Assembly (NCBI GenBank): GCA_963847445.1
Contig: CAWJZV010000033.1
Location: 1-64,000 of the forward strand
DNA from: an uncultured delta proteobacterium
Lineage (GTDB): Bacteria > Desulfobacterota > Binatia > UBA9968
Length of the DNA stretch: 64,000 nucleotides
Reading direction: 5' to 3'
How positions within the stretch are numbered: the stretch's first letter is position 1; every line of letters starts with the position of its first letter. Shown piece after piece: positions 17,803 through 29,793 of the stretch. The notes beneath the pieces were generated by a model that was not told the DNA's origin, did no database searches, and saw only the letters and a list, made by a program, of their open reading frames with translations. The position numbers and the translations under genes are program-made.

Positions 17803-19125
17803 TCAAGACGTCTTCTGCTTTCTACCCAGCCACAGGCTGTTGACCAGCCAAACAATTGAAATCGGCACGGCGACTAGCGAAACCCCGGTCATCGCCAAAC
17901 CGAGCGCGCCCAAGCCGGCATAGGACCAGGCGCCCACCTGATCGCCCAAGCGATACACCACGGTATCGATGAAGCTCTTGGCCTTGTACTTATCCTCACG
18001 CGGCACGACGGTGAACAGCACCTCGCGGGTCGGCCGGGCGAAGGCGAAATTGCCGGCGCGGCGGATCACTTGAAAAGCCACCAGCGCCGCGATGGTCGGC
18101 GCCCAAGCCAGGGTGCCGAAACCGAAGACGCTGAGCAACGGCAGCAACGCTAAGGTAAGCGCTACACCGATGCGTTTGATGGTTCTCGCGGTAACGAACA
18201 ACTGCGCCCCGAGAGTTAGAATATTTACCCAAAGATCGACACTGGCAAAAAACGCCGTGCGCGCGCCGCGGTCGGCGAAATATTTCCTGGCGATCTCGGC
18301 TTGCTGGAAATAAAGAAACGTCGAGGTGATCGCGAAGAGCAAAAGAAAAACACTGACGTTGATCAGATAGGGCGACTTGAGCGCGTGAGACAGGCCGCTC
18401 AGAACCGAACCGCCGATGAGCGACTCGTCGCTTTGACCGGCGGGCCGCTGGCTCACCGCCGAAGACAAGCGCGACAAACGACCAACGCAGAAGACCGCGA
18501 CTTCCAGCAATACGGCGGAGCCAAACAAAAGATATGTCGCCGGCACCTGCTTGGCGAGGGCCGCGGTTAAGCTCGAACCAATAATACCGCCGAGGGTCGC
18601 GCCGGCGGCGATGAAGCCGAACAGCCGCTTGCTCTGCTCGGTGTCGAACACGTCGACCATCAGCGCCCAAAAAACCGAGACGACAAAGAGATTAAACATC
18701 GACGCCCAGATAAAGAACACTCGGCCGATCCAGATATTCTGTTCCCCCGACGCCATCTGAAGCAACACGATGAAGATCAAAAGATTGGCCGCGAAGAAGC
18801 GATAGGTAATCGCTATGAATTTGACCCGCGGCAGTTTCGCCACCAGCGCGGCGAAAGGCGGATTGACAGCGATCATGCCGATCAGCGTACCAGTGAAAAG
18901 CCATTGGAGATTTTCCACCCCGCCGGCCACGCCCATCTCGTCACGGATCGGCCGGAGAATATAATAGGAGACGAAAACTGAAATAATATAAAGCCATGAC
19001 CAGCCGAGGGCGCGCAACTCAGCCGGCCGGACATCGATCACCCGCGATAGAAGCCGATGCACAGCGCCATTACTCGTCGATGCGCCCGAATCCGTCACTC
19101 CTCGCCCCTCACCACTCGCTCCCAA
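17803..19125 (-). CDS. Npt/AAA-like (ATP:ADP antiporter family) MFS transporter
   Basis: YYILRPIRDEMG, FNLFVVSVFW, KRLFGFI, KYKAKSFIDTVVYR.GD; start may be GTG near 19098. Confidence 0.88.
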   Translation of the reverse strand: MGASGEGRGVTDSGASTSNGAVHRLLSRVIDVRPAELRALGWSWLYIISVFVSYYILRPIRDEMGVAGGVENLQWLFTGTLIGMIAVNPPFAALVAKLPRVKFIAITYRFFAANLLIFIVLLQMASGEQNIWIGRVFFIWASMFNLFVVSVFWALMVDVFDTEQSKRLFGFIAAGATLGGIIGSSLTAALAKQVPATYLLFGSAVLLEVAVFCVGRLSRLSSAVSQRPAGQSDESLIGGSVLSGLSHALKSPYLINVSVFLLLFAITSTFLYFQQAEIARKYFADRGARTAFFASVDLWVNILTLGAQLFVTARTIKRIGVALTLALLPLLSVFGFGTLAWAPTIAALVAFQVIRRAGNFAFARPTREVLFTVVPREDKYKAKSFIDTVVYRLGDQVGAWSYAGLGALGLAMTGVSLVAVPISIVWLVNSLWLGRKQKTS

Positions 19126-21196: not shown

Positions 21197-22900
21197 CTAG
21201 GGCAAGACCGCACGCAACAGCACCAGCGGCGCGTCGCCTTCAGGCCCGCTGCCGCGGCTGCGTAGCAACGGGGGCGTCAATTGAGGTTGAGCTTGCCGGA
21301 GCCTATTCCACACTTTCTCGGTGGTGATGATGTAGCCGTCGCCGTCAGCGATCTGCACCACGGCGGAATCCACGGGCCGTTCGGCCACCTCAATCGCCCC
21401 GCCGCGATAGAACACCACGGCATCGCCATTGAAGCCGCCGGACAAAACCAACTTGTCCGAAGGTTGCACCAGACGGTTGACTTCAATCATGAAGTCCCGG
21501 TAGCTCTTGGTCTCGGCGATTTTCACTTCCACCAGGCCTCGGCTTAAAAACGCGAAAATAATCCATAGCGCCACCAACGAGCCGCTGGCCGCGATCATGC
21601 GGCCGCGCCAGAGGTAATAGCCGAACAGCGACCAGAGAGCGGCCCAGGCCAGCGCGACGGCATCGAATTTCCAACCCCAGCCGGCGATCTGATTGACGAT
21701 GACGAGAAAATTAGCGCGGTCTTTGGGCTTGAGCAATTTTTCGATGGGGTCGAACAACCATGCTGGATCATGGGTCCATAAATCGCCCAGGGCGATTAAT
21801 AGCAGGATCAAGGCCGTGATCGCAGCAACGCCGGAAATCAGCCGGAGAAACCAAGTTCGAACCACATCAAACCTCGCCTGGCGATGAACCCACACGGCCA
21901 AGAGCAGCGCCAACGCCGGATAGATCGGCAACAGATAAACCGCCCGTTTCCCCGACGACAGCGAGAAAAACAGCAGCATGACGCCGAACCAGGTTTGCAG
22001 AAACAGCAGATCATCGCCGTCAGAACTGCCGCGCTCTTTCACCCAATCCCAAAACATAAACGGATAGAACAATCCCCATGGCGCCGCGAGACTGAAGAGA
22101 TAAGACAAATAATAATAAACTGGATGGCTGTGGCCGGAACCGCCAACAAAGCGGCGCAAATTTTCCGACAGCAGTTGGCGATCGACGAAACCCTCCCCGC
22201 CCCGGCTAATCGCCATGCCATACCAGCCGGCGACCAGAAGTACTGCGAGCAGCACGCCGGGATGAAAGGCGAATTTAAAAAACATTTTCCAATTACGTTT
22301 GAGCGCGAGGAAGACCGCGATCACCAACCCCGGCAAAACGATCCCCAACGGCCCTTTGGAAAGCGTCGCCAAACCAACCAGCAGGTACATCGCATAGGGC
22401 CACATGGGATGGCGCAGGAAACCGCGGTAGATAGCGTAGAACAGGATCAAACTCAGCGTGACGAAGAAACACAGAGTCATATCGACGCGCGCGTTGACCG
22501 CCTGGGTCTGATAGATCATCGTCGTCGCCAGGATCGCGCCGCCTAACAATCCGACCTGCGCACCGAAAAGCTTAGCGCCGAGCAGATAGAGAAAAATCAC
22601 GCCGAGAGTCGCGTACAGCGCCGAGGGAAATCGGATGGTCGTTTCATCGAGCACCCCGGTAACCTGATAGGTCAGCGCCGCCGACCAATGAAACATCGGC
22701 GGCTTGGACGGAATCGCGGTGGCGCGCTTGAGCGGTAACAGCCACTCGCCGCGTTGGACAATATCCTGCACGGCCAAAGCCTCGCGCGGCTCGCCTTTGT
22801 CGAACATCGGCGTGCTGCCTAGATAAGGAAAGTAAAGGACGCCGCAGAGCGCCACCAGCAAAAACACATGAAGCCAACAAGTCCGCTTGGGTCCGGTTCA
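21197..22900 (-). CDS. arnT: ArnT-like GT-C glycosyltransferase
   Basis: DKGEPRE, SKPP, RFPSA, ARVDM, LSKGPLG, SSGKRAVYLLP; start either ATG ~22900 with frameshift or 22867. Confidence 0.88.
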
Positions 22901-23324
22901 TAGAAGTGTTCGACTGCCCGCTCGGTGTCGGCATCAATTGTCTCCTTTATCAGCGACGAAAGAAGTCCGATTCTGACGAATTTCACCGTCATAGAAACGA
23001 CTTACATCAAGTACACTGACGAGCGCAAACTTGCCGCAATCCAATGAGGTGTTATGTTTCTTGGGGGGGCCAGCTAGTTCAAGGTAGACATCACGCGCGT
23101 GCAATTGACCGTGCGTGACATCGATCAGGTATCGCAATAATCATCTGTATTGGTTGCGGTGGTGAGATGGCCCCCGAGTCCTACGACCGACCATTGGCGA
23201 GTAGAGGATACCTGTAACCATCTTGCGAACAAACCTTTTGCCTCAGTGAGATTTCCGTAGAAACTCATCGAGTTTGTTGAGCAGCGAGCTCACAGTTCTC
23301 TCTTTCCCGGCGACGATCGACCTT

Positions 23325-24080
23325 TTATGATTTCTCGGATCGGGTCGAGTCCTTGAATAACCGGTGGCTGCGCTTGAGCTTGAGCAAGAAAAGATAAAGT
23401 GCTCCTACCGCCAGTGATAACCAGAGCGCGCGAATGGCCGCCGTCTTGATCCCTACCGCGCCATGGAGAAGATAGGTGCGCCAAACCGGGATAAAAATAA
23501 AGCCAATGGTGAGCCCAACAACCGTACCGAGGTCCTTTTTTATGCTCCGTCTCCAGTCAAAACGCATCCCCTCAAACGACCGCGCGACGCGCGACAATTT
23601 CGGCAAGTAGCGGTTGACGGAAGTTGCATAGTCATCATATTCACTGGCGAATTTATTTCGCAAATAAGCTTCCTCGGAAGAAACAATAGCCTGATAGACG
23701 AAAAGAAAAAACGGTATCAAAATAAGATAACCCATCGGCGATCCGAGTAGCATGGTCATGCCGATCGCTATCAATCCATTTCCGACATACATCGGATTTC
23801 GTGTGATCCCGTAGACGCCGCCACGAACCAACCGTCCCGCATAAACCTGTCCATCTTTGCCGCCACGATGAATGTATTCAAAACCGATAGTGATGAGCCG
23901 AACGGCTTGCCCGAGCAGAGCGACTCCTATGCCGACGACAGTCAAAAATTGATCGACCACAAGGCTGTCGAAAATGATCTTGGGGCGGAGGGTGAGAGCA
24001 CCCAGCACAAAGATTATGGGGAAAAGCGCGTTACGGTAATGAAAAAAGAAATTGCCAATTGCGATATTCCAAGAATGCAA
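23325..24080 (-). CDS. ICMT/PEMT-family integral membrane methyltransferase (LmtA-like)
   Basis: GVYGITRNPMYVGN; EEAYLRNKFASEYDDYATSVNRYLP. Confidence 0.88.
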   Translation of the reverse strand: MHSWNIAIGNFFFHYRNALFPIIFVLGALTLRPKIIFDSLVVDQFLTVVGIGVALLGQAVRLITIGFEYIHRGGKDGQVYAGRLVRGGVYGITRNPMYVGNGLIAIGMTMLLGSPMGYLILIPFFLFVYQAIVSSEEAYLRNKFASEYDDYATSVNRYLPKLSRVARSFEGMRFDWRRSIKKDLGTVVGLTIGFIFIPVWRTYLLHGAVGIKTAAIRALWLSLAVGALYLFLLKLKRSHRLFKDSTRSEKS

Positions 24081-24126
24081 GCGAGACTCTCCGCTTCTGT
24101 CCGCGCCGAAAACTCAACCGTGGTGT

Positions 24127-24852
24127 TTACTTGACGGCTATGATCCCGCAGAAATTATACCACTTAAAGAAAACGTCACAAAAAGTGAATCCGCTGTTTA
24201 GAAACAGTTCGTAGTCTTCTTCAAGCCGGTAAGGAATCAAGACGTTTTCCAGAGCTTCCCGCTTTTGGGCGATTTCCATCTGACTGTAGCCATTGCGTTG
24301 TTTGAAATCGTAATAATGTTTAATGAATGAGCGATTCACCTTGGAATCCTTGCTAAGAACTTTTTCGACCACCACCATGCAGCCGCCAGGAATCATCCCA
24401 TTGGCGATATTCGTCATGATGCGATGCCGGCGCACCGGTCTAATAAATTGCAGGGTTAAGTTCATAATGACGACCGAAGCATTGGTAATTTCGATGTCAT
24501 CGTTGAGATCTGCGCAGATGAGTTCGTGGTCACGTTCCATTCCCTGTTGAGCGATTTTTTGGCGGGCTTGGTCAAGCATTTCATTGGAGAAATCCACGCC
24601 GATAAACTTAACATTTTTTGATAGCACTCGGTCCAATTCAAAAAAAGCATTGCACGTAGCGCAGCCCAAGTCGTATATCCGTGTGCCCTCGACCGCATAG
24701 TCTGCAGCAATTTCACTGATCATTCGCTGCATTTCGGAATAGTAGGGAACCGATCGATTGAGCATGTCGTCAAAAACAACCGCGGTGTCTTTACCAAAAT
24801 CGAAGTCGCTTACAGCCTCTCGTCTCTCGCTGAATAAAGTGTCTTTAGCCAT
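24127..24852 (-). CDS. cmoA: Carboxy-S-adenosylmethionine synthase
   Basis: FDDMLNRSVPYY, YDLGC, NLTLQF, VEK, NGYSQMEIAQKREALENVLIP, WYNF; AAGGAG RBS. Confidence 0.92.
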   Translation of the reverse strand: MAKDTLFSERREAVSDFDFGKDTAVVFDDMLNRSVPYYSEMQRMISEIAADYAVEGTRIYDLGCATCNAFFELDRVLSKNVKFIGVDFSNEMLDQARQKIAQQGMERDHELICADLNDDIEITNASVVIMNLTLQFIRPVRRHRIMTNIANGMIPGGCMVVVEKVLSKDSKVNRSFIKHYYDFKQRNGYSQMEIAQKREALENVLIPYRLEEDYELFLNSGFTFCDVFFKWYNFCGIIAVK

Positions 24853-25100
24853 AAGTCACCGGCTCCTTTGTCGCGATAGTGGTCTAAAAAGTGGCCGCGC
24901 GAAAAGCCCCCTGACCAAGAAAATTCTTCTAATGTGGCTTGTCGGATTCACCCGCTGCTTGTTGCGATGGCTGCGCAATTCAATTCACGCTAGGGCGAAC
25001 CACCGCGCATTAGCGAAATGCGATTCCTGTCTCGCCTCATGCGTTACACGCGATCTTTGACGCGCAGCAATACACTGAGCACATTTACGCTGTATGGAGG

Positions 25101-25156
25101 GCAAAGTAACGCGAATGTCTTGCTGGCACCTTTCCGGAAGATTACATCTTTGAAAG
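25101..25156 (-). promoter_or_regulatory. Cop/Cus-box-like promoter upstream of cmoA
   Basis: GCAAAGTAACGCGAA and CCGGAAGATTACAtctTTGAaAG at the same spacing as 27669-27724; TACTTT -10-like element on the minus strand. Confidence 0.65.
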
Positions 25157-25393
25157 GTTAAAGTGGCCGACGGGACTAAAGAAATGAAGCCAACGAGCAC
25201 CTGAGCGAGTAAAGACAGCAAACCGTTCGGCGGCCGCAGGGCTTTTTACCGTAACTTTCGCTTCACCCGCGTCGTAGAATTCAATCCTTGGATGCAAGAG
25301 TCAATGACAAACTATTCGAGGTCTGGCAACGCAACTATCGCAAGGCAATGCCCGGGGGTTGCACTTGCGTTTCATTTCCGGAAGTTCCCCGTA

Positions 25394-25819
25394 TTACAAT
25401 TGCTTAGCCCACTGGATTATCAGCGCGCGCTCCGCGGCCGACAGCTTGGCCTCGGGATGCAACGAAACATAGAACCAGGGCGGCATATCGCCTTTGCCAA
25501 CTTCCCTGGCGATTTCCTTTTTCTTACGCGATTTGCGGGTTTCGTCGTAGCCATCCCAGGTGGATAAATTCAACTTCTTGCGGCCGTCTTTAACATCTCG
25601 GGCGATCAGAAAGGACGCAGGAGCGACCCGTGCATACCACGGCCAGACGGTCTCGTTGGAATGGCAGGCGTTACAGGATCGTCGCAAGAGCGCCTGAACT
25701 TCCACCGGCGCTTCGGGATAGTTGCGCTGTGCCGGATTGCTCCGCGCGAGCGGCACCAACTGCGCCGCACACAGAGCGATCGCCAGCGCGGCACCAAAGC
25801 GTATGAGCCATTTCATCAT
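25394..25819 (-). CDS. Haem-binding domain (c-type cytochrome) protein
   Basis: SCNACHSNETVWPWY, LNLSTW, MPP..Y...HPEAKLS. Confidence 0.88.
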   Translation of the reverse strand: MMKWLIRFGAALAIALCAAQLVPLARSNPAQRNYPEAPVEVQALLRRSCNACHSNETVWPWYARVAPASFLIARDVKDGRKKLNLSTWDGYDETRKSRKKKEIAREVGKGDMPPWFYVSLHPEAKLSAAERALIIQWAKQL

Positions 25820-25890: not shown

Positions 25891-27642
25891 TTACTTGTTG
25901 GTGACGACCGAGATGTCACCAACGCGGGCAATGGTCGACGGTGTGCTGCCGCCCAATCTGTCGACCGCGCTACTTTTGATAAAAACCACCAGTCGATGTT
26001 TCGAATGTTTCCACAGAGCGGCAAATTCCTCACGCGTGTACAGCACTTTGCCATAACCGGCGGCCGGCTCGGGCCGCTGCCTGGCAACATAATCGCTACC
26101 CAAAATCTTGCTGCTATCGGCGGGCGCGATTACCCATATCGGTCGCTGAATATTCAGATAGAATGGCAGGCTTGAGGGATACCCGCCGTAAAGAACCAGT
26201 TGGTCATCGGCATGGATCAACGGCGCAACTCTCTCCGCCAATTGTATGGACGAGCGATCTAAGGAGACCGCGATCCAAATCGGATTGGCGCACAGAACTA
26301 AGAGCGCAAAACCGATAGCCGTTGCGGGGTAGAGAAACTGCTGCTTCGCCCAACCCTCGTCAGTGATCAGGAGCTCGAGTACCGGGATGAGTTGGAGCCC
26401 GATAATCCCCGAAAATGCCGGCCGCCGGGATAAATGTTCGTGTATATATGCCTGGAAACGATCGGGCAAAAAATCAGGCCAAAGGACTGTCAGTGTAATG
26501 GCGAATGATACCAGGCAGAAAGTGGCTAGTGGAACCCAAAGAATCCTCTTCTTTTTCACCGTGGAATCCGTCAGGGCTTTGGCAATCACCGCTGCCAAGA
26601 TGATCGCGAGTGGCGGATAGATCGGTAGAATGTAATGGGGGAGTTTGGATGATGACAGAGAAAAAAACAGCAGCGGTATGGCAACCCACAAACTCAAAAA
26701 GAGATGTTCACCTTTCAGCGCACGCTTACCTAGATCGGTGATCGTAGCGGGCAGCAAAACCGTCCAAGGGAAAAATCCGCCCGCCAGGACCCCGATGAAG
26801 TAATACCAAGGCCCGCTCCGCTTGAATTGTGTCGAGGTAAAACGGTGGACGTTCTCCTCCCAAAGAAAATAACGCAGGTATCCTGGATTGCGCGACTCGG
26901 CGGTCAGGTACCATGGCGCCGCCGTTAAAATTAGCAGCGCTATGCCGAGGGGAATCTGCATGTGACGGAGCAAACTCCATCGTTTTGTCAGCAGCAGGTA
27001 AACGCCAATCACCGCTGCAGGGAGAAGAAACCCGATAGGCCCCTTGAGCAGCGTCGCCATGCCCATGGCAACATACATCAGAAGAAACTGGCTTTTCCCT
27101 GCGCCGCTTTCGACCCCACGCTGCCCAAGGCAAAAACTGCAGAGAGCGAGGGTAATGCAAAACGTCAGCGTCATATCCATGATGACGGCGCGGGATAGAG
27201 CAAAAAACTCGATGCTGGACAGAAGAATCAAAGCGCTCCAGAGTCCGGCCCGGCGCCCGAACAGAGAGCCGGCAAACCGGTAGGTAATGCAAAGACAAGC
27301 CAATGCCGCCAAAGCGGATGGCAGTCGCGCTGCCCATTCCGAGATGCCGAAAAACTTGTACGAGAGAGCTACCAGCCCAAAAAAGAATATCGGTTTGTCT
27401 AATCGCGGGATAAAGTCATAGTGGGGCGTGACCCAGTCTTTGAGCAGTAATATCTCGCGGGCGATTTCAGCATTTCGCCCCTCGTCCGGCTCAAAGAGCG
27501 CCGCCCCGCCCAAGTTAGTAAATAATACCCATACACAGAAAAGCAGCAGACCGAGATCCCAGTATCGGGCGGGATCGCTGGAATGTACATTTTGATTGTA
27601 AATTGAAAGTGGCGGCTCAACCGTTCCGACGCTGCGATGCAT
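25891..27642 (-). CDS. arnT: ArnT-like GT-C glycosyltransferase
   Basis: EPDEGRNAEIARE, DKPI, ARLPSA, LKGPIG, SSSKLPHYILP; ATG 27642 chosen because TTG 27672 lies in the promoter motif. Confidence 0.9.
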   Translation of the reverse strand: MHRSVGTVEPPLSIYNQNVHSSDPARYWDLGLLLFCVWVLFTNLGGAALFEPDEGRNAEIAREILLLKDWVTPHYDFIPRLDKPIFFFGLVALSYKFFGISEWAARLPSALAALACLCITYRFAGSLFGRRAGLWSALILLSSIEFFALSRAVIMDMTLTFCITLALCSFCLGQRGVESGAGKSQFLLMYVAMGMATLLKGPIGFLLPAAVIGVYLLLTKRWSLLRHMQIPLGIALLILTAAPWYLTAESRNPGYLRYFLWEENVHRFTSTQFKRSGPWYYFIGVLAGGFFPWTVLLPATITDLGKRALKGEHLFLSLWVAIPLLFFSLSSSKLPHYILPIYPPLAIILAAVIAKALTDSTVKKKRILWVPLATFCLVSFAITLTVLWPDFLPDRFQAYIHEHLSRRPAFSGIIGLQLIPVLELLITDEGWAKQQFLYPATAIGFALLVLCANPIWIAVSLDRSSIQLAERVAPLIHADDQLVLYGGYPSSLPFYLNIQRPIWVIAPADSSKILGSDYVARQRPEPAAGYGKVLYTREEFAALWKHSKHRLVVFIKSSAVDRLGGSTPSTIARVGDISVVTNK

Positions 27643-27668
27643 GGAACTAAAGTTATGCTGGACAATCC

Positions 27669-27724
27669 GCAAAGTAACGCGAAAGCATTACCGCGAGCTT
27701 GCCGGAAGATTACAATTTTGACAG
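27669..27724 (-). promoter_or_regulatory. Cop/Cus-box-like promoter upstream of arnT
   Basis: GATTACAATTTTGACAG imperfect palindrome plus shared 15-bp GCAAAGTAACGCGAA. Confidence 0.7.
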
Positions 27725-27737
27725 GTTGGCGGCGTGA

Positions 27738-29147
27738 TTAAGCCGCCGGAGGAAGAGGCAGAGACAGGCTAAAGACCGAACCGCCGCCGGGGTCGGACGA
27801 GGCTTCGACCCGCCCTTGGTGCGCTTGGACAACCGCTTTGACTAGACTCAAGCCGAGGCCGAGACCGCGCTGCGAGCGGCTTTTATCACCGCGGTAAAGC
27901 CGATCCCAAATGCGCGGCAGCTCGTCGGCCGGTATGCCGATGCCGTTATCGCGAACCGACAAAAGAACCTCGCGCTCGGCGCGGGTCGCGGCGATCTCGA
28001 CTCGCCCACCGCTCGGGGTATATTTGATCGCGTTGTCAACGAGGTTTGCCACCACTTGCCGCAGCCTTGTGCGGTCGGCTCGCAAAGATAGAACCCGGGG
28101 AACGTCGGTCGTCATGCGCACCTGCGCCTCGTCTGCGACATGCTCGTAAAGACCCGTCACTTCATGGACCAACTCGGCTAGATTCACGTCTTCAAACGCA
28201 AGCTTCATCGTCCCGGTCTCAGCTTCCGAGATGTCCATCAAAGAATTAAGAATCGCCATGACGCGATCGGACTCTTCCAAACAGTCCGCCAATGCTTCGC
28301 GGCAGGCATCTGCGCCGGCATCGGATCGCAAAGTTTGCTCGGCCACTCCCCGAAGACGGGTCACCGGCGTGCGCAGATCGTGCGCGACGTTATCCAAAGC
28401 GTCCCTCATGCCGCCGATCAAGTTCTCGATCTTCTCCAACATCTGATTGAACAAGATCACCAGCTCGTTTAGTTCATCGCCGGTTTCGCTATCGGGAACT
28501 CGGGCTTCGAAGCGCGCGGTATCGATAATCGACCGCGCCGCTATACTGAGATGGCGAATCGGCCGGAGCGCGCGAAAGGCCAGGAAGGCGCCACCGGCAA
28601 CACCGAACAGCACCATCGGGATGATAGTGGCGAGCATCGTCTCGTGAAAGCGTTCCCGCACCTCCTCGCGATCCTGAATGTCTCTGCCAACTTGCAAAAC
28701 ATTGCCATTCGCGAGCCGCGCGGCGGCGACTTCAAGCAAATCACCACCACTATTCGATGAATAGTATTGCCATTGATCGATCAACGGTGGCTTATCCGGA
28801 TTGGTAAAATCGAACTTCTCCCAAAGGCGCGGATTGCTGAGAAAAATAGTCACGCTCGCCGCATTGGTAATGCGCGCAAAATAGGAGTTGCGCCGGCTCG
28901 GTTTGCGCTGTTTGCCAAACTCATTGGCCAGCCCCGAGACGCCGCCGGCCTCGACTAAAGCCACATATTTGCGCAGCTGAGACTGAGTCTCGCCGCGTCG
29001 GTCGCGCATGGACGAGAACAAGAACAAATAGGATACCGAGAACAGGACTAAGGAACTGACGATAAAGATTCCCGAGTACCATGCCGTCAGGCGAAAACCG
29101 AGGGTCCGGTGAAAGGAGCTACTGACTCTTAAGCGCATAGCCGACAC
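27738..29147 (-). CDS. HAMP sensor histidine kinase (CusS/CopS-like)
   Basis: Two TMs, HAMP, AHDLRTP, NLVDNAIKY, DNGIGI, GLGLGL. Confidence 0.93.
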   Translation of the reverse strand: MSAMRLRVSSSFHRTLGFRLTAWYSGIFIVSSLVLFSVSYLFLFSSMRDRRGETQSQLRKYVALVEAGGVSGLANEFGKQRKPSRRNSYFARITNAASVTIFLSNPRLWEKFDFTNPDKPPLIDQWQYYSSNSGGDLLEVAAARLANGNVLQVGRDIQDREEVRERFHETMLATIIPMVLFGVAGGAFLAFRALRPIRHLSIAARSIIDTARFEARVPDSETGDELNELVILFNQMLEKIENLIGGMRDALDNVAHDLRTPVTRLRGVAEQTLRSDAGADACREALADCLEESDRVMAILNSLMDISEAETGTMKLAFEDVNLAELVHEVTGLYEHVADEAQVRMTTDVPRVLSLRADRTRLRQVVANLVDNAIKYTPSGGRVEIAATRAEREVLLSVRDNGIGIPADELPRIWDRLYRGDKSRSQRGLGLGLSLVKAVVQAHQGRVEASSDPGGGSVFSLSLPLPPAA

Positions 29148-29793
29148 CCCGGTGCGTCTGAATCAGCTTGCCGTCGAAATCGCGATCGAGTTTGCTGCGC
29201 AAGCGCGATACCAGCACATCGACGACGTTGGTCATCGGGTCGAAATCGTAACCCCAGACATGCTCGAGAATCATCGTTTTCGACACCACCTTGCCGGCAT
29301 TGCGCATGAGATATTCGAGCAAGGCGAACTCGCGCGGCTGTAAATCGAGTTTGGTTTCGCCGCGCTTGACCTCACGGGTGAGCAAGTCGAGGGACAGCTC
29401 GCCGGCAGCGAGCCGAGTCGGCTCGGTCTCGTGGCCGGCCCGGCGGATCAATGCTTGCACGCGGGCCAACAGCTCAGCGAAGGAAAACGGTTTAGTCAGG
29501 TAATCGTCGCCGCCGGTCTGCAAGCCTTTAACTCGATCGTCGACGCTACGCTTGGCGCTCAAGATCAACACCGGCGTAGGAATTTTCGCTTGCCGCAGCC
29601 GCTCGATCACGCTCAAGCCGTCAAGCTTGGGCAGCATGATATCCATGACCGCTGCGTCATAGGGCTCGGACAACGCCAGATGAAGCGCCCCGTCGCCATT
29701 ATCGGCACGGTCGACTGCGAAGCCCGCTTCTTCCAAGCCTTTGACAATGAATGAAGCAATTTTCTTGTCGTCTTCGACAACTAGGATGCGCAT
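29119..29793 (-). CDS. OmpR-family response regulator (CusR/CopR-like)
   Basis: MRILVVEDD, DIMLP, DDYLTKPF, VWGYDFDPMTNVVDV, RGVGY. Confidence 0.95.
   Translation of the reverse strand: MRILVVEDDKKIASFIVKGLEEAGFAVDRADNGDGALHLALSEPYDAAVMDIMLPKLDGLSVIERLRQAKIPTPVLILSAKRSVDDRVKGLQTGGDDYLTKPFSFAELLARVQALIRRAGHETEPTRLAAGELSLDLLTREVKRGETKLDLQPREFALLEYLMRNAGKVVSKTMILEHVWGYDFDPMTNVVDVLVSRLRSKLDRDFDGKLIQTHRGVGYALKSQ

Follow-up and report, generated by a model that had tools for sequence, protein, structure and literature searches.

A two-gene unit that pairs cmoA with a gene for a membrane protein of the ICMT/PEMT fold was analysed in a 64,000-nucleotide stretch of DNA from an uncultured delta proteobacterium (GenBank assembly GCA_963847445.1, contig CAWJZV010000033.1, positions 1 to 64,000), referred to here as the window. 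The assembly to which the window belongs, as contig C33, has a size of 7.19 Mb, a completeness of 91.8% and a contamination of 6.9%, and relatives of this genome are labelled Candidatus Binatia. Both genes lie on the minus strand, each behind a plausible ribosome-binding site. The first, cmoA (24127-24852), has an ATG start with AAGGAG 12 nt ahead of it and encodes a protein of 241 residues, a predicted synthase of carboxy-S-adenosylmethionine (Cx-SAM), which passes the equivalog model TIGR00740 over its full length (244.8 bits, cut-off 193.3) and aligns end to end with the CmoA/YecO structures 1IM8 (174.5 bits) and 4GEK (160 bits). A 46-bp spacer (24081-24126), in which GGAG stands ahead of a TTG start, leads to the gene for a membrane protein of 251 residues (23325-24080) that exceeds the cut-offs of the Pfam families PEMT (PF04191, 45.2 bits, cut-off 25) and ICMT (PF04140, 25.4 bits, cut-off 24). 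The initial annotation had described an intact cmoA with an arginine motif of the QKRxxLEN type, which reads AQKREALENV, placed 46 bp upstream of an ICMT/PEMT-family gene, and both statements were confirmed.

The 541-bp gap 5' of cmoA (24853-25393, minus strand) is the presumed promoter region of the two-gene unit, and a gap of 457 bp lies 3' of the membrane gene, before the second of two flanking GT-C glycosyltransferase genes. In a promoter and terminator scan, 5 promoter-like sites were found against 2.6 expected, none of them on the minus strand upstream of cmoA, and a sigma-70-like match was absent from the minus strand of the 541-bp gap. Contigs from two RNA libraries, derived from relatives that are 93-98% alike, cover parts of both genes. 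One of them spans 24062-24212 and takes in part of cmoA, the spacer and just 19 letters of the membrane gene, while another, also from a relative, gives weak cover of 24706-24944. Since DNA may occur in such libraries and the sources are relatives, this cover is a weak hint of expression, and stretches that lack cover carry no meaning.

Conservation of the pair was surveyed by two independent scans. In the first, an alignment of four orthologues served as query against one genome for each species and returned 323 relatives, and the counts for genomes refer to the best 80 loci of these, with 37-78% identity to the membrane protein. The 80 loci bear 15 named phylum labels, all bacterial and including cultured bacteria; cultured carriers are Methylobacter luteus, M. 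marinus, Hydrosulfovibrio ferrireducens and Pigmentiphaga humi, and no Bacillota, Actinomycetota or archaeal label was found among them. The second scan, of metagenome contigs, supplied 80 further loci. Open reading frames (ORFs) and start codons of the related loci were assigned by the authors' own scripts, and many of the carriers are metagenome-assembled genomes whose completeness is unknown. A CmoA homologue adjoins the membrane gene at 75 of the 80 genome loci and 76 of the 80 metagenome loci, 151 of 160 in total, and the adjacency of cmoA and an ICMT-like gene, which the initial annotation had proposed to look for in other genomes, is thus conserved.

The usual arrangement, with a CmoA at least 40% identical lying upstream on the same strand, occurs at 66 genome and 54 metagenome loci, and the same arrangement cut by a contig end accounts for 1 and 13 more. 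A partial CmoA lies upstream on the same strand at 2 metagenome loci and no genome locus, and CmoA is downstream on the same strand at 7 metagenome loci, again with no genome counterpart. Other arrangements were confined to the genome set, namely a divergent CmoA at 4 loci (three Methylobacter, one KSB1), an adjacent CmoA of less than 40% identity at 3 (L059, L085, L087) and a truncated CmoA remnant at 1 (L109). No CmoA was present at 4 genome loci although both flanks reached 800 bp or more (L039, L042, L044, L107), and no metagenome locus was of this kind. One genome locus (L055) and 4 metagenome loci, with less than 800 bp of flank on one side, were not assessable. Three of the four exceptions belong to Binatia genomes with a diverged CmoA-like pair elsewhere. 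By the start-codon choice of the authors, the two genes overlap by 4 bp at 32 loci, 13 of which form one close group.

The two genes also occur together at the level of whole genomes. Among 61 genomes of the window's order, where the unpublished genome G035 was scored as a negative, the membrane protein has close orthologues (E <= 1e-87, 55-70% identity) in G000, G013, G036 and G011 only, and CmoA-like genes (E <= 1e-20) were found in exactly the same four, that is in 4/4 genomes with the membrane gene and 0/57 without it. G036 has the two genes side by side. In G013 and G011 a histidine kinase gene is directly followed by the membrane gene, and the CmoA-like gene, a diverged one (158-161 bits), sits on a different contig. 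Over the pair in the window G+C falls to 44.5-48.7%, against about 58% for the window as a whole, and together with the patchy distribution this points to horizontal spread as an accessory trait. The dip in G+C spans 23200-25200, with values of 44.5-52% across cmoA and the membrane gene.

The canonical consumer of Cx-SAM is lacking in most carriers. No CmoB was found in the window or in the rest of its genome (best TIGR00452 match 35.3 bits, cut-off 275), and the genome holds a single CmoA, so that the absence of cmoB reported for the window extends to a 92%-complete genome that has no second cmoA either. Among 17 genomes with the membrane gene, many of them of unknown completeness, CmoB exceeds the cut-off in four (G061, G062, G064, G225) and was not found in 13 (G000, G036, G013, G011, G063, G065, G067, G069, G070, G221-G224). 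CmoB is dispensable for carriers of the membrane gene. The sole CmoA adjoins the membrane gene, with CmoB far away, in both Methylobacter luteus and Hydrosulfovibrio ferrireducens, and because the only CmoA of these two CmoB-bearing genomes is the linked one, it is suggested that this CmoA subfamily makes Cx-SAM. As controls, 151 genomes were sampled from the phylum to which Methylobacter luteus belongs (Pseudomonadota by its NCBI label); CmoA was present in 59 of them, and cmoB directly adjoins cmoA in 27 of the 30 best canonical loci.

The CmoA proteins linked to the membrane gene keep the hallmark of Cx-SAM synthases. In E. coli CmoA, Arg199 is the sole residue touching the carboxylate of Cx-SAM, according to the accessible text of the source (PMC4482062), and its alignment counterpart in the window protein is R198, within the motif given above. 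The equivalent arginine is present in 70 of the 73 linked CmoAs, 27 of 27 CmoB-linked ones and all 73 metagenome CmoAs that cover the position. TIGR00740 was matched by 70/73 linked CmoAs at E <= 3e-57, a level about that of its cut-off. From family membership and the conserved arginine, the window CmoA is predicted to make Cx-SAM from S-adenosylmethionine (SAM) and prephenate. In the three linked exceptions and in proteins designated type-2, K-[ST]-R-S or K-A-N-S-I-R-G replaces the arginine motif, and the product of these Arg-less linked and type-2 CmoA-like proteins is less certain.

The linked proteins form a subfamily of their own. They are 49-88% identical to the window CmoA when three divergent members (23-29%) are left out, against 33-39% for CmoB-linked proteins. 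A maximum-likelihood tree of 107 rows, built by a quick search, contained 73 linked, 3 type-2, 27 CmoB-linked and 4 other sequences. It separates the 73 linked and 3 type-2 rows from the 27 CmoB-linked and 4 other rows with a Shimodaira-Hasegawa-like approximate likelihood ratio test (SH-aLRT) value of 74, and includes a core clade of 66 linked rows (SH-aLRT 86). In the alignment, 36 positions are at least 95% conserved in both groups and 11 positions discriminate linked from CmoB-linked proteins. The separate CmoA clade that was to be looked for in a tree was therefore recovered with moderate support. A second CmoA (L122, C1:4560259-4560981, 221.3 bits, motif RKREALENV) was seen in the Methylobacter marinus genome G062; the 1.5 kb around it contain no CmoB and no membrane gene.

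Gene fusions connect the membrane enzyme with the substrate of CmoA. At E <= 1e-30 a family profile gathered 515 representative clusters (50% identity). Among the 150 top-ranking representatives, 13 exceed 330 residues; ten were scanned, P0222 and P0250 were left out and P0126 is a tandem form. Five of them (P0187, P0206, P0208, P0223, P0244) carry a C-terminal type II chorismate mutase domain (PF01817, 56-66 bits, cut-off 27) and keep the family membrane domain, including its hairpin motif. At five metagenome loci (L164-L168) CmoA, with the motif QRKREALENV, lies directly downstream of the fusion gene, and L164 encodes the fusion protein P0187 itself. Chorismate mutase produces prephenate. 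CmoA needs prephenate to carboxylate SAM, as stated in the available parts of three papers (PMC4482062, PMC10491745, PMC12783734). The fusion is considered the strongest single argument for coupling, because a membrane "methyltransferase" would have no evident use for prephenate unless it depended on Cx-SAM. A chorismate mutase domain gene also occurs elsewhere in the window genome (contig C30), and therefore prephenate should be available. A direct fusion of CmoA to the membrane enzyme was not found among 10 longer relatives, all tandem forms, or among the 10 scanned long representatives. An OmpA-like or a DUF2141 domain lies C-terminal to the membrane domain in the single members P0226 (442 residues) and P0270 (366 residues).

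The membrane protein itself belongs to a family whose public annotation is the generic "isoprenylcysteine carboxylmethyltransferase family protein". Its best NCBIfam family is LmtA_Leptospira (TIGR04571), at 82.5 bits against a cut-off of 325, with residues 9-217 aligned to profile positions 11-220 of 252. The same family is the best NCBIfam match for 74 of 74 members, with a best E-value of 7.1e-33 and all scores far under the cut-off. The description of the protein as ICMT/LmtA-like holds insofar as the Pfam ICMT and PEMT cut-offs are passed and LmtA is the nearest family; with 82.5 bits against 325, the protein is not an LmtA orthologue. TIGR04571 exceeded its cut-off in 0 of 121 genomes from the phylum of the genome that holds locus L113. 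An AlphaFold2 model from 74 sequences (predicted local distance difference test 90.3, predicted template modelling score 0.88) contains six long helices, with residues 72-81 forming a short hairpin. The top Foldseek matches, the ICMT structures 5V7P, 8XKU_G and 4A2N, have probabilities of 0.99-1.00 over about 120-196 columns covering the core only, and every Foldseek E-value is above 0.001. From the helix pattern and the positive-inside rule, both read by eye, the protein is predicted to have six helices with the N- and C-termini inside and the conserved motifs on the cytoplasmic side. A predicted complex of CmoA and the membrane protein scored 0.00 against a mark of 0.32, which counts neither way.

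Residues Y69, R72-G73-G74, R94-N95-P96-M97-Y98, N101, Y129, E136-E137, R16, R61 and R157 are invariant in the 74 sequences. The cofactor motif RHPxY appears as R94-N95-P96-M97-Y98, with the change of His to Asn invariant, and the EE pair is E136-E137. Four paralogues from related genomes, two of which were shown to have no CmoA, are without R72-G73; these unlinked proteins have RHPLY in three cases and RNPLY in one. The Asn variant is thus no mark of the donor, since RNP also occurs in a paralogue of a genome without CmoA, and it is the RGG hairpin rather than the Asn that marks the family. Within the invariant RGG(K/R) hairpin, R72 and K75 are candidate residues for binding the Cx-SAM carboxylate. 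Residues K114, Y121, R125 and H126 of Ma-ICMT, taken from the accessible part of a docking paper (PMC12643142), align with R83, Y90, R94 and N95 of the window protein, and the donor is not settled thereby.

Some relatives carry two such domains. The tandem forms P0121-P0130 (about 505 residues, from Binatia-type metagenomes) combine a window-type N-terminal domain with a second ICMT-like domain that has RYPLY or RHPLY and no RGGK hairpin, and a second ICMT-like gene lies near the pair at L047, L050, L053, L054, L057 and L061 (five Omnitrophota, one "Pseudomonas sp."). CmoM acts after CmoB by methyl-esterifying the carboxylate, and by analogy the tandem or paired domain suggests a second step, such as methyl esterification of the newly added carboxylate. 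A second, diverged pairing of a CmoA-like with an ICMT-like gene was found in three Binatia genomes, G013, G011 and G067 (L034:1270-3384, L035:1417-3416 and L128). In these genomes the window-type membrane gene is present too, with no cmoA beside it. The CmoA-like genes of the diverged pairing score 158-161 bits on TIGR00740, below the cut-off, with K-A-N-S-I-R-G replacing Q-K-R-E-A-L-E-N. Each is immediately followed by a PEMT-family membrane protein of about 400 residues with an RNPYY motif, which is split in two ORFs in L035. This diverged pairing is read as a second, older version of the pair of CmoA and membrane enzyme.

Taken as a mechanism, cmoA and the membrane gene would constitute a self-contained two-gene module. 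CmoA would convert SAM and prephenate into Cx-SAM in the cytoplasm, and the six-helix ICMT/PEMT-fold enzyme, with its motifs on the cytoplasmic side, would bind Cx-SAM instead of SAM. From there it would pass the carboxymethyl group (+C2H2O2, +58.005 Da) on to a nucleophile of an acceptor that is embedded in the inner membrane, on its inner leaflet, under the control of a metal- or envelope-sensing two-component system. That in a self-contained module of this kind the membrane enzyme uses Cx-SAM to carboxymethylate an acceptor on the cytoplasmic side of the inner membrane is judged fairly likely. Binding of Cx-SAM and carboxymethyl transfer by the membrane enzyme are inferred from linkage, co-occurrence and fusion, and the pathway probably attaches the carboxymethyl group to a membrane lipid. 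The acceptor is guessed, by likeness to LmtA and PEMT, to be a lipid phosphate or a head-group amine. A lipid phosphate (lipid A or polyprenyl phosphate) would be the first guess because LmtA, the closest relative with a characterised activity, puts a methyl group on the Kdo2-lipid A 1-phosphate; a phospholipid head-group amine would be the second. Of the carboxymethyl transfer from Cx-SAM to lipid A or another lipid that the initial annotation had proposed, the module is supported by adjacency, the lack of CmoB, the CmoA clade and the fusion, and lipid A has in its favour a sub-threshold likeness to LmtA, which makes a lipid A phosphate only a lead.

One further candidate product, the methylcarbamate hopanoids, was considered because Methylobacter carries the pair. 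Methylcarbamate and N-carboxymethyl groups add the same formula, C2H2O2, by the authors' arithmetic. Amino-hopanoids with a terminal methylcarbamate, assigned tentatively from mass spectra alone, occur in every Type I methanotroph strain that was examined, according to the accessible text of the report (PMC5100885). Of 101 genomes from the order that includes Methylobacter luteus, just 7 carry the membrane gene, and since the hopanoids were reported in every Type I strain examined, the pair was rejected as a general explanation of them; single strains may differ.

The genes around the pair in the window, all on the minus strand, were identified from ORFs and Pfam matches. Upstream of the presumed promoter region lie a Haem_bd protein of 141 residues (25394-25819, PF14376, 139.4 bits), an ArnT-like GT-C/PMT_2 glycosyltransferase of 593 residues (25891-27672, PF13231 and PF02366; NF009784, 217.8 bits), a histidine kinase with HAMP and HisKA domains (27738-29147) and an OmpR-type response regulator (29119-29793). 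Downstream lies the second ArnT-like GT-C glycosyltransferase, of 556 residues (21197-22867, PF13231, 70.9 bits; NF009784, 111.5 bits). ArnT (NF009784) is the best NCBIfam match of both GT-C proteins, but their scores, 111.5 and 217.8 bits, stay below its cut-off of 567, which makes them ArnT-like members of the GT-C/PMT_2 family rather than demonstrated ArnT enzymes. The earlier description of the pair as lying between two ArnT-like genes stands in that both flanking genes are of the GT-C type and ArnT-like, with the correction that the Haem_bd gene also intervenes. Farther off, an MFS protein of 440 residues (17803-19125) has a weak likeness to TLC ATP/ADP transporters (PF03219, 22.3 bits).

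In related genomes the surroundings vary. A survey of the nearest ORF on each side at 54 dereplicated loci, made with a crude longest-ORF caller that yields some spurious ORFs, covered 94 proteins with 121 Pfam families, the most frequent being histidine-kinase domains (6), PEMT (3), sulfatase (2) and Rce1-like (2). No conserved third gene was found beside the pair at these 54 loci, and with no recurrent third gene among the 94 neighbour proteins the neighbourhood was given up as a guide to the acceptor. ArnT-like genes occur at 5 of the 80 genome loci and a GT9 heptosyltransferase-like gene at 4 of 80; the ArnT-like neighbourhood is therefore not conserved. At L021 (G018) a 50%-identical homologue of the GT-C gene at 21197-22867 is followed by a canonical ICMT-like gene of the RHPLY type, and a GT-C gene beside an ICMT-like gene thus also occurs without an adjacent cmoA; no CmoA-like gene was seen in G018.

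The two-component system (27738-29793) has the heavy-metal CusRS/CopRS families as best matches for its regulator and kinase, just under the cut-offs (TIGR01387, 254.4 bits, cut-off 279.2; TIGR01386, 233.7 bits, cut-off 292.55). Homologues of the regulator that are 68-82% identical lie upstream of the pair at 18 of the 80 loci, in Binatia, Desulfurivibrionaceae-like and Syntrophaceae records. This identity is high for a comparison across phyla and suggests that regulator, kinase and module move together. The two-component system is a candidate regulator of the module, and, given its position ahead of the module in several lineages, a signal from the envelope or from metals probably turns the module on. 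At L039 and L042 the two-component system is present and no cmoA is adjacent. Regulator loci with Binatota, Thermodesulfobacteriota or "Deltaproteobacteria" labels include L040, L068-L072, L075-L077, L081, L083, L084, L092 and L106. In the Desulfurivibrionaceae-like group L068-L084, a sulfatase-family membrane protein of 695 residues lies between the kinase and cmoA (e.g. L081:3111-5198), with phosphoglycerol transferase I as its best match (78.9 bits, below the cut-off), and genes resembling phoU and pstBACS by eye lie downstream on the opposite strand. Envelope modification is a reasonable setting for the module.

Three other explanations of the pair were weighed. The one that survives best, although it is unlikely, holds that the membrane enzyme is an ordinary SAM methyltransferase that esterifies a carboxylate placed by an unlinked carboxymethyltransferase, as CmoM does after CmoB. 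The ICMT family, by its Pfam and NCBIfam names, includes carboxyl O-methyltransferases, the SAM-binding core motifs of the membrane enzyme are intact, and the tandem forms P0121-P0130 and the near paralogues at the six loci named above show that two such activities can act together. This explanation, however, requires a third, unlinked carboxymethyltransferase, whereas CmoB was not found in 13 of 17 carriers and other neighbours are not conserved. In the tandem forms, moreover, it is the second domain that is canonical and the window-type domain that bears the hairpin, which fits the window type as the first step.

A second alternative, of hardly better prospects and if anything a shade less probable, accepts the use of Cx-SAM and places the carboxymethyl group on a nucleophile that is small or volatile, such as a thiol, sulfide or metalloid, or on a protein or lipoprotein terminus. 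MddA is an ICMT-family enzyme that acts on a small, membrane-partitioning nucleophile, and its model is weakly matched by 2 of the 74 members. The linked two-component system is of the heavy-metal kind, and most neighbourhoods are unrelated to lipid synthesis. Against this, LmtA, which acts on lipid A, is the best match of 74/74 members, with alignments that span almost the whole protein, the neighbours that recur are envelope enzymes (ArnT-like, GT9 and the sulfatase-family membrane transferase), and the named carrier phyla are all, as a matter of general knowledge, usually counted as bearing an outer membrane. That the adjacency is meaningless, with cmoA serving tRNA alone for uridine 5-oxyacetic acid (cmo5U) and the membrane gene an unrelated fellow traveller, is very improbable: CmoB elsewhere in 4 of 17 carriers would allow such tRNA use of Cx-SAM there, but the adjacency holds at 151 of 160 loci in at least 15 phyla, the genes co-occur in 4/4 against 0/57 genomes of the order, most carriers are without CmoB, and the membrane enzyme is fused to chorismate mutase.

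Several points weigh against the reading of the pair as a Cx-SAM-dependent carboxymethyltransferase module. The membrane gene lacks a neighbouring CmoA at four genome loci; in the three Binatia genomes among them the distant, diverged CmoA-like gene is without Arg at the aligned position, and in the fourth (L107, genome G069, completeness unknown) no CmoA was found in the genome at all. Related genomes are not independent samples. The split in the CmoA tree has moderate support (SH-aLRT 74, quick search). As for the donor, Ma-ICMT is also basic at the position aligned with the RGG hairpin, an unlinked paralogue shares the RNP variant of RHPxY, and a preference of the membrane enzyme for Cx-SAM over SAM is a proposal. 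The lipid A idea is weak, with an LmtA score of a quarter of the cut-off, and is weakened further by the rarity of ArnT-like, GT9 and sulfatase neighbours. By the authors' reasoning, carboxymethylation of a phosphate would also leave the net negative charge undiminished, unlike known lipid A modifications. The support for the module reading as a whole comes from comparative genomics.

Among known systems, the nearest in gene order is CmoA-CmoB, which forms cmo5U34 in tRNA. The two have in common the same first enzyme (TIGR00740, Arg199) and a synthase gene that adjoins the presumed Cx-SAM consumer. The partner here is, in contrast, an integral membrane protein of the ICMT/PEMT fold rather than a soluble Rossmann-fold enzyme, and shows no likeness to CmoB; its CmoA belongs to a separate subfamily, 33-39% identical to CmoB-linked proteins, and a tRNA acceptor cannot be assumed. 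Other users of Cx-SAM, as far as the accessible parts of two papers describe them, are TglE/TglF (3-thiaglutamate), MccS/MccB-CTD (Bacillus microcin C) and phage CmoA/CmoX (5-carboxymethylcytosine in DNA) (PMC10491745, PMC12783734). From the same partial sources, CmoB, TglF, MccB-CTD and CmoX are homologues of methyltransferase-fold enzymes or C5-methyltransferases that act on RNA, peptide, nucleotide and DNA, and selectivity for Cx-SAM comes from basic residues, Lys91 and Arg315 in CmoB and a key Arg in CmoX (PMC10491745, PMC12783734). In the Tgl, Mcc and CmoX systems, as here, a CmoA homologue has been recruited beside a transferase other than CmoB for a new class of acceptor. The differences are that the partner here is a polytopic membrane enzyme, that its acceptor is expected to be embedded in the membrane, and that the residue in contact with Cx-SAM is only a candidate.

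On the side of the membrane enzyme, LmtA of Leptospira shares the superfamily, the membrane setting and a near-full-length alignment. LmtA is the O-methyltransferase of the Kdo2-lipid A 1-phosphate, and it reportedly uses SAM, as Boon Hinckley et al. are said to have found in 2005. The comparison with it was made through the family profile (82.5 bits against 325). ICMT/Ste14 and PEMT enzymes (4A2N, 5V7P) share the fold and the LVxGGxY, R-x-P-x-Y and EE motifs. In contrast to them, the present family has RNPMY for RHPxY and an invariant Y-I-x-R-G-G-(K/R) hairpin before the cofactor motif, together with two extra C-terminal helices, the linkage to cmoA and, in some members, the fusion to chorismate mutase.

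The initial annotation knew of no such pathway, and a literature search, mostly without subscription papers and supplements, likewise found no publication tying CmoA or Cx-SAM to ICMT, PEMT, Ste14 or lipids. Relative to the known cascades of CmoA with a dedicated transferase, what would be new is the enzyme fold and probably the class of acceptor. The available text of the 2015 CmoB paper remarks that further carboxymethyl acceptors await discovery (PMC4482062). A broader picture, offered tentatively and held at somewhat less than even confidence, is that of a widespread, mobile envelope system in which Cx-SAM would serve to carboxymethylate lipid A 1-phosphate, polyprenyl phosphate or a phospholipid amine. 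Some lineages would add a methyl-ester cap through the second ICMT-like domain, and the system would possibly be induced by metal stress through the CusRS-like two-component system.

With 515 clusters matched by the family profile and carriers in at least 15 phyla, cultured bacteria included, the module is widespread and no curiosity of a single genome. It would explain the presence of CmoA in lineages without CmoB, and it offers a testable function for proteins now annotated generically as "isoprenylcysteine carboxylmethyltransferase family protein", with a specific and searchable mass shift of +58.005 Da as its prediction. A naturally Cx-SAM-selective membrane enzyme, if true, would also be useful to the engineering of alkyl-transfer pathways (PMC7496830). 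Cx-SAM is a rare cofactor, whose range of users the module would extend by a fold integral to the membrane and probably by a lipid acceptor. If the proposal is true, Cx-SAM would have its first use on a lipid and its first membrane-integral transferase, and envelope lipids would have a new chemical class of modification.

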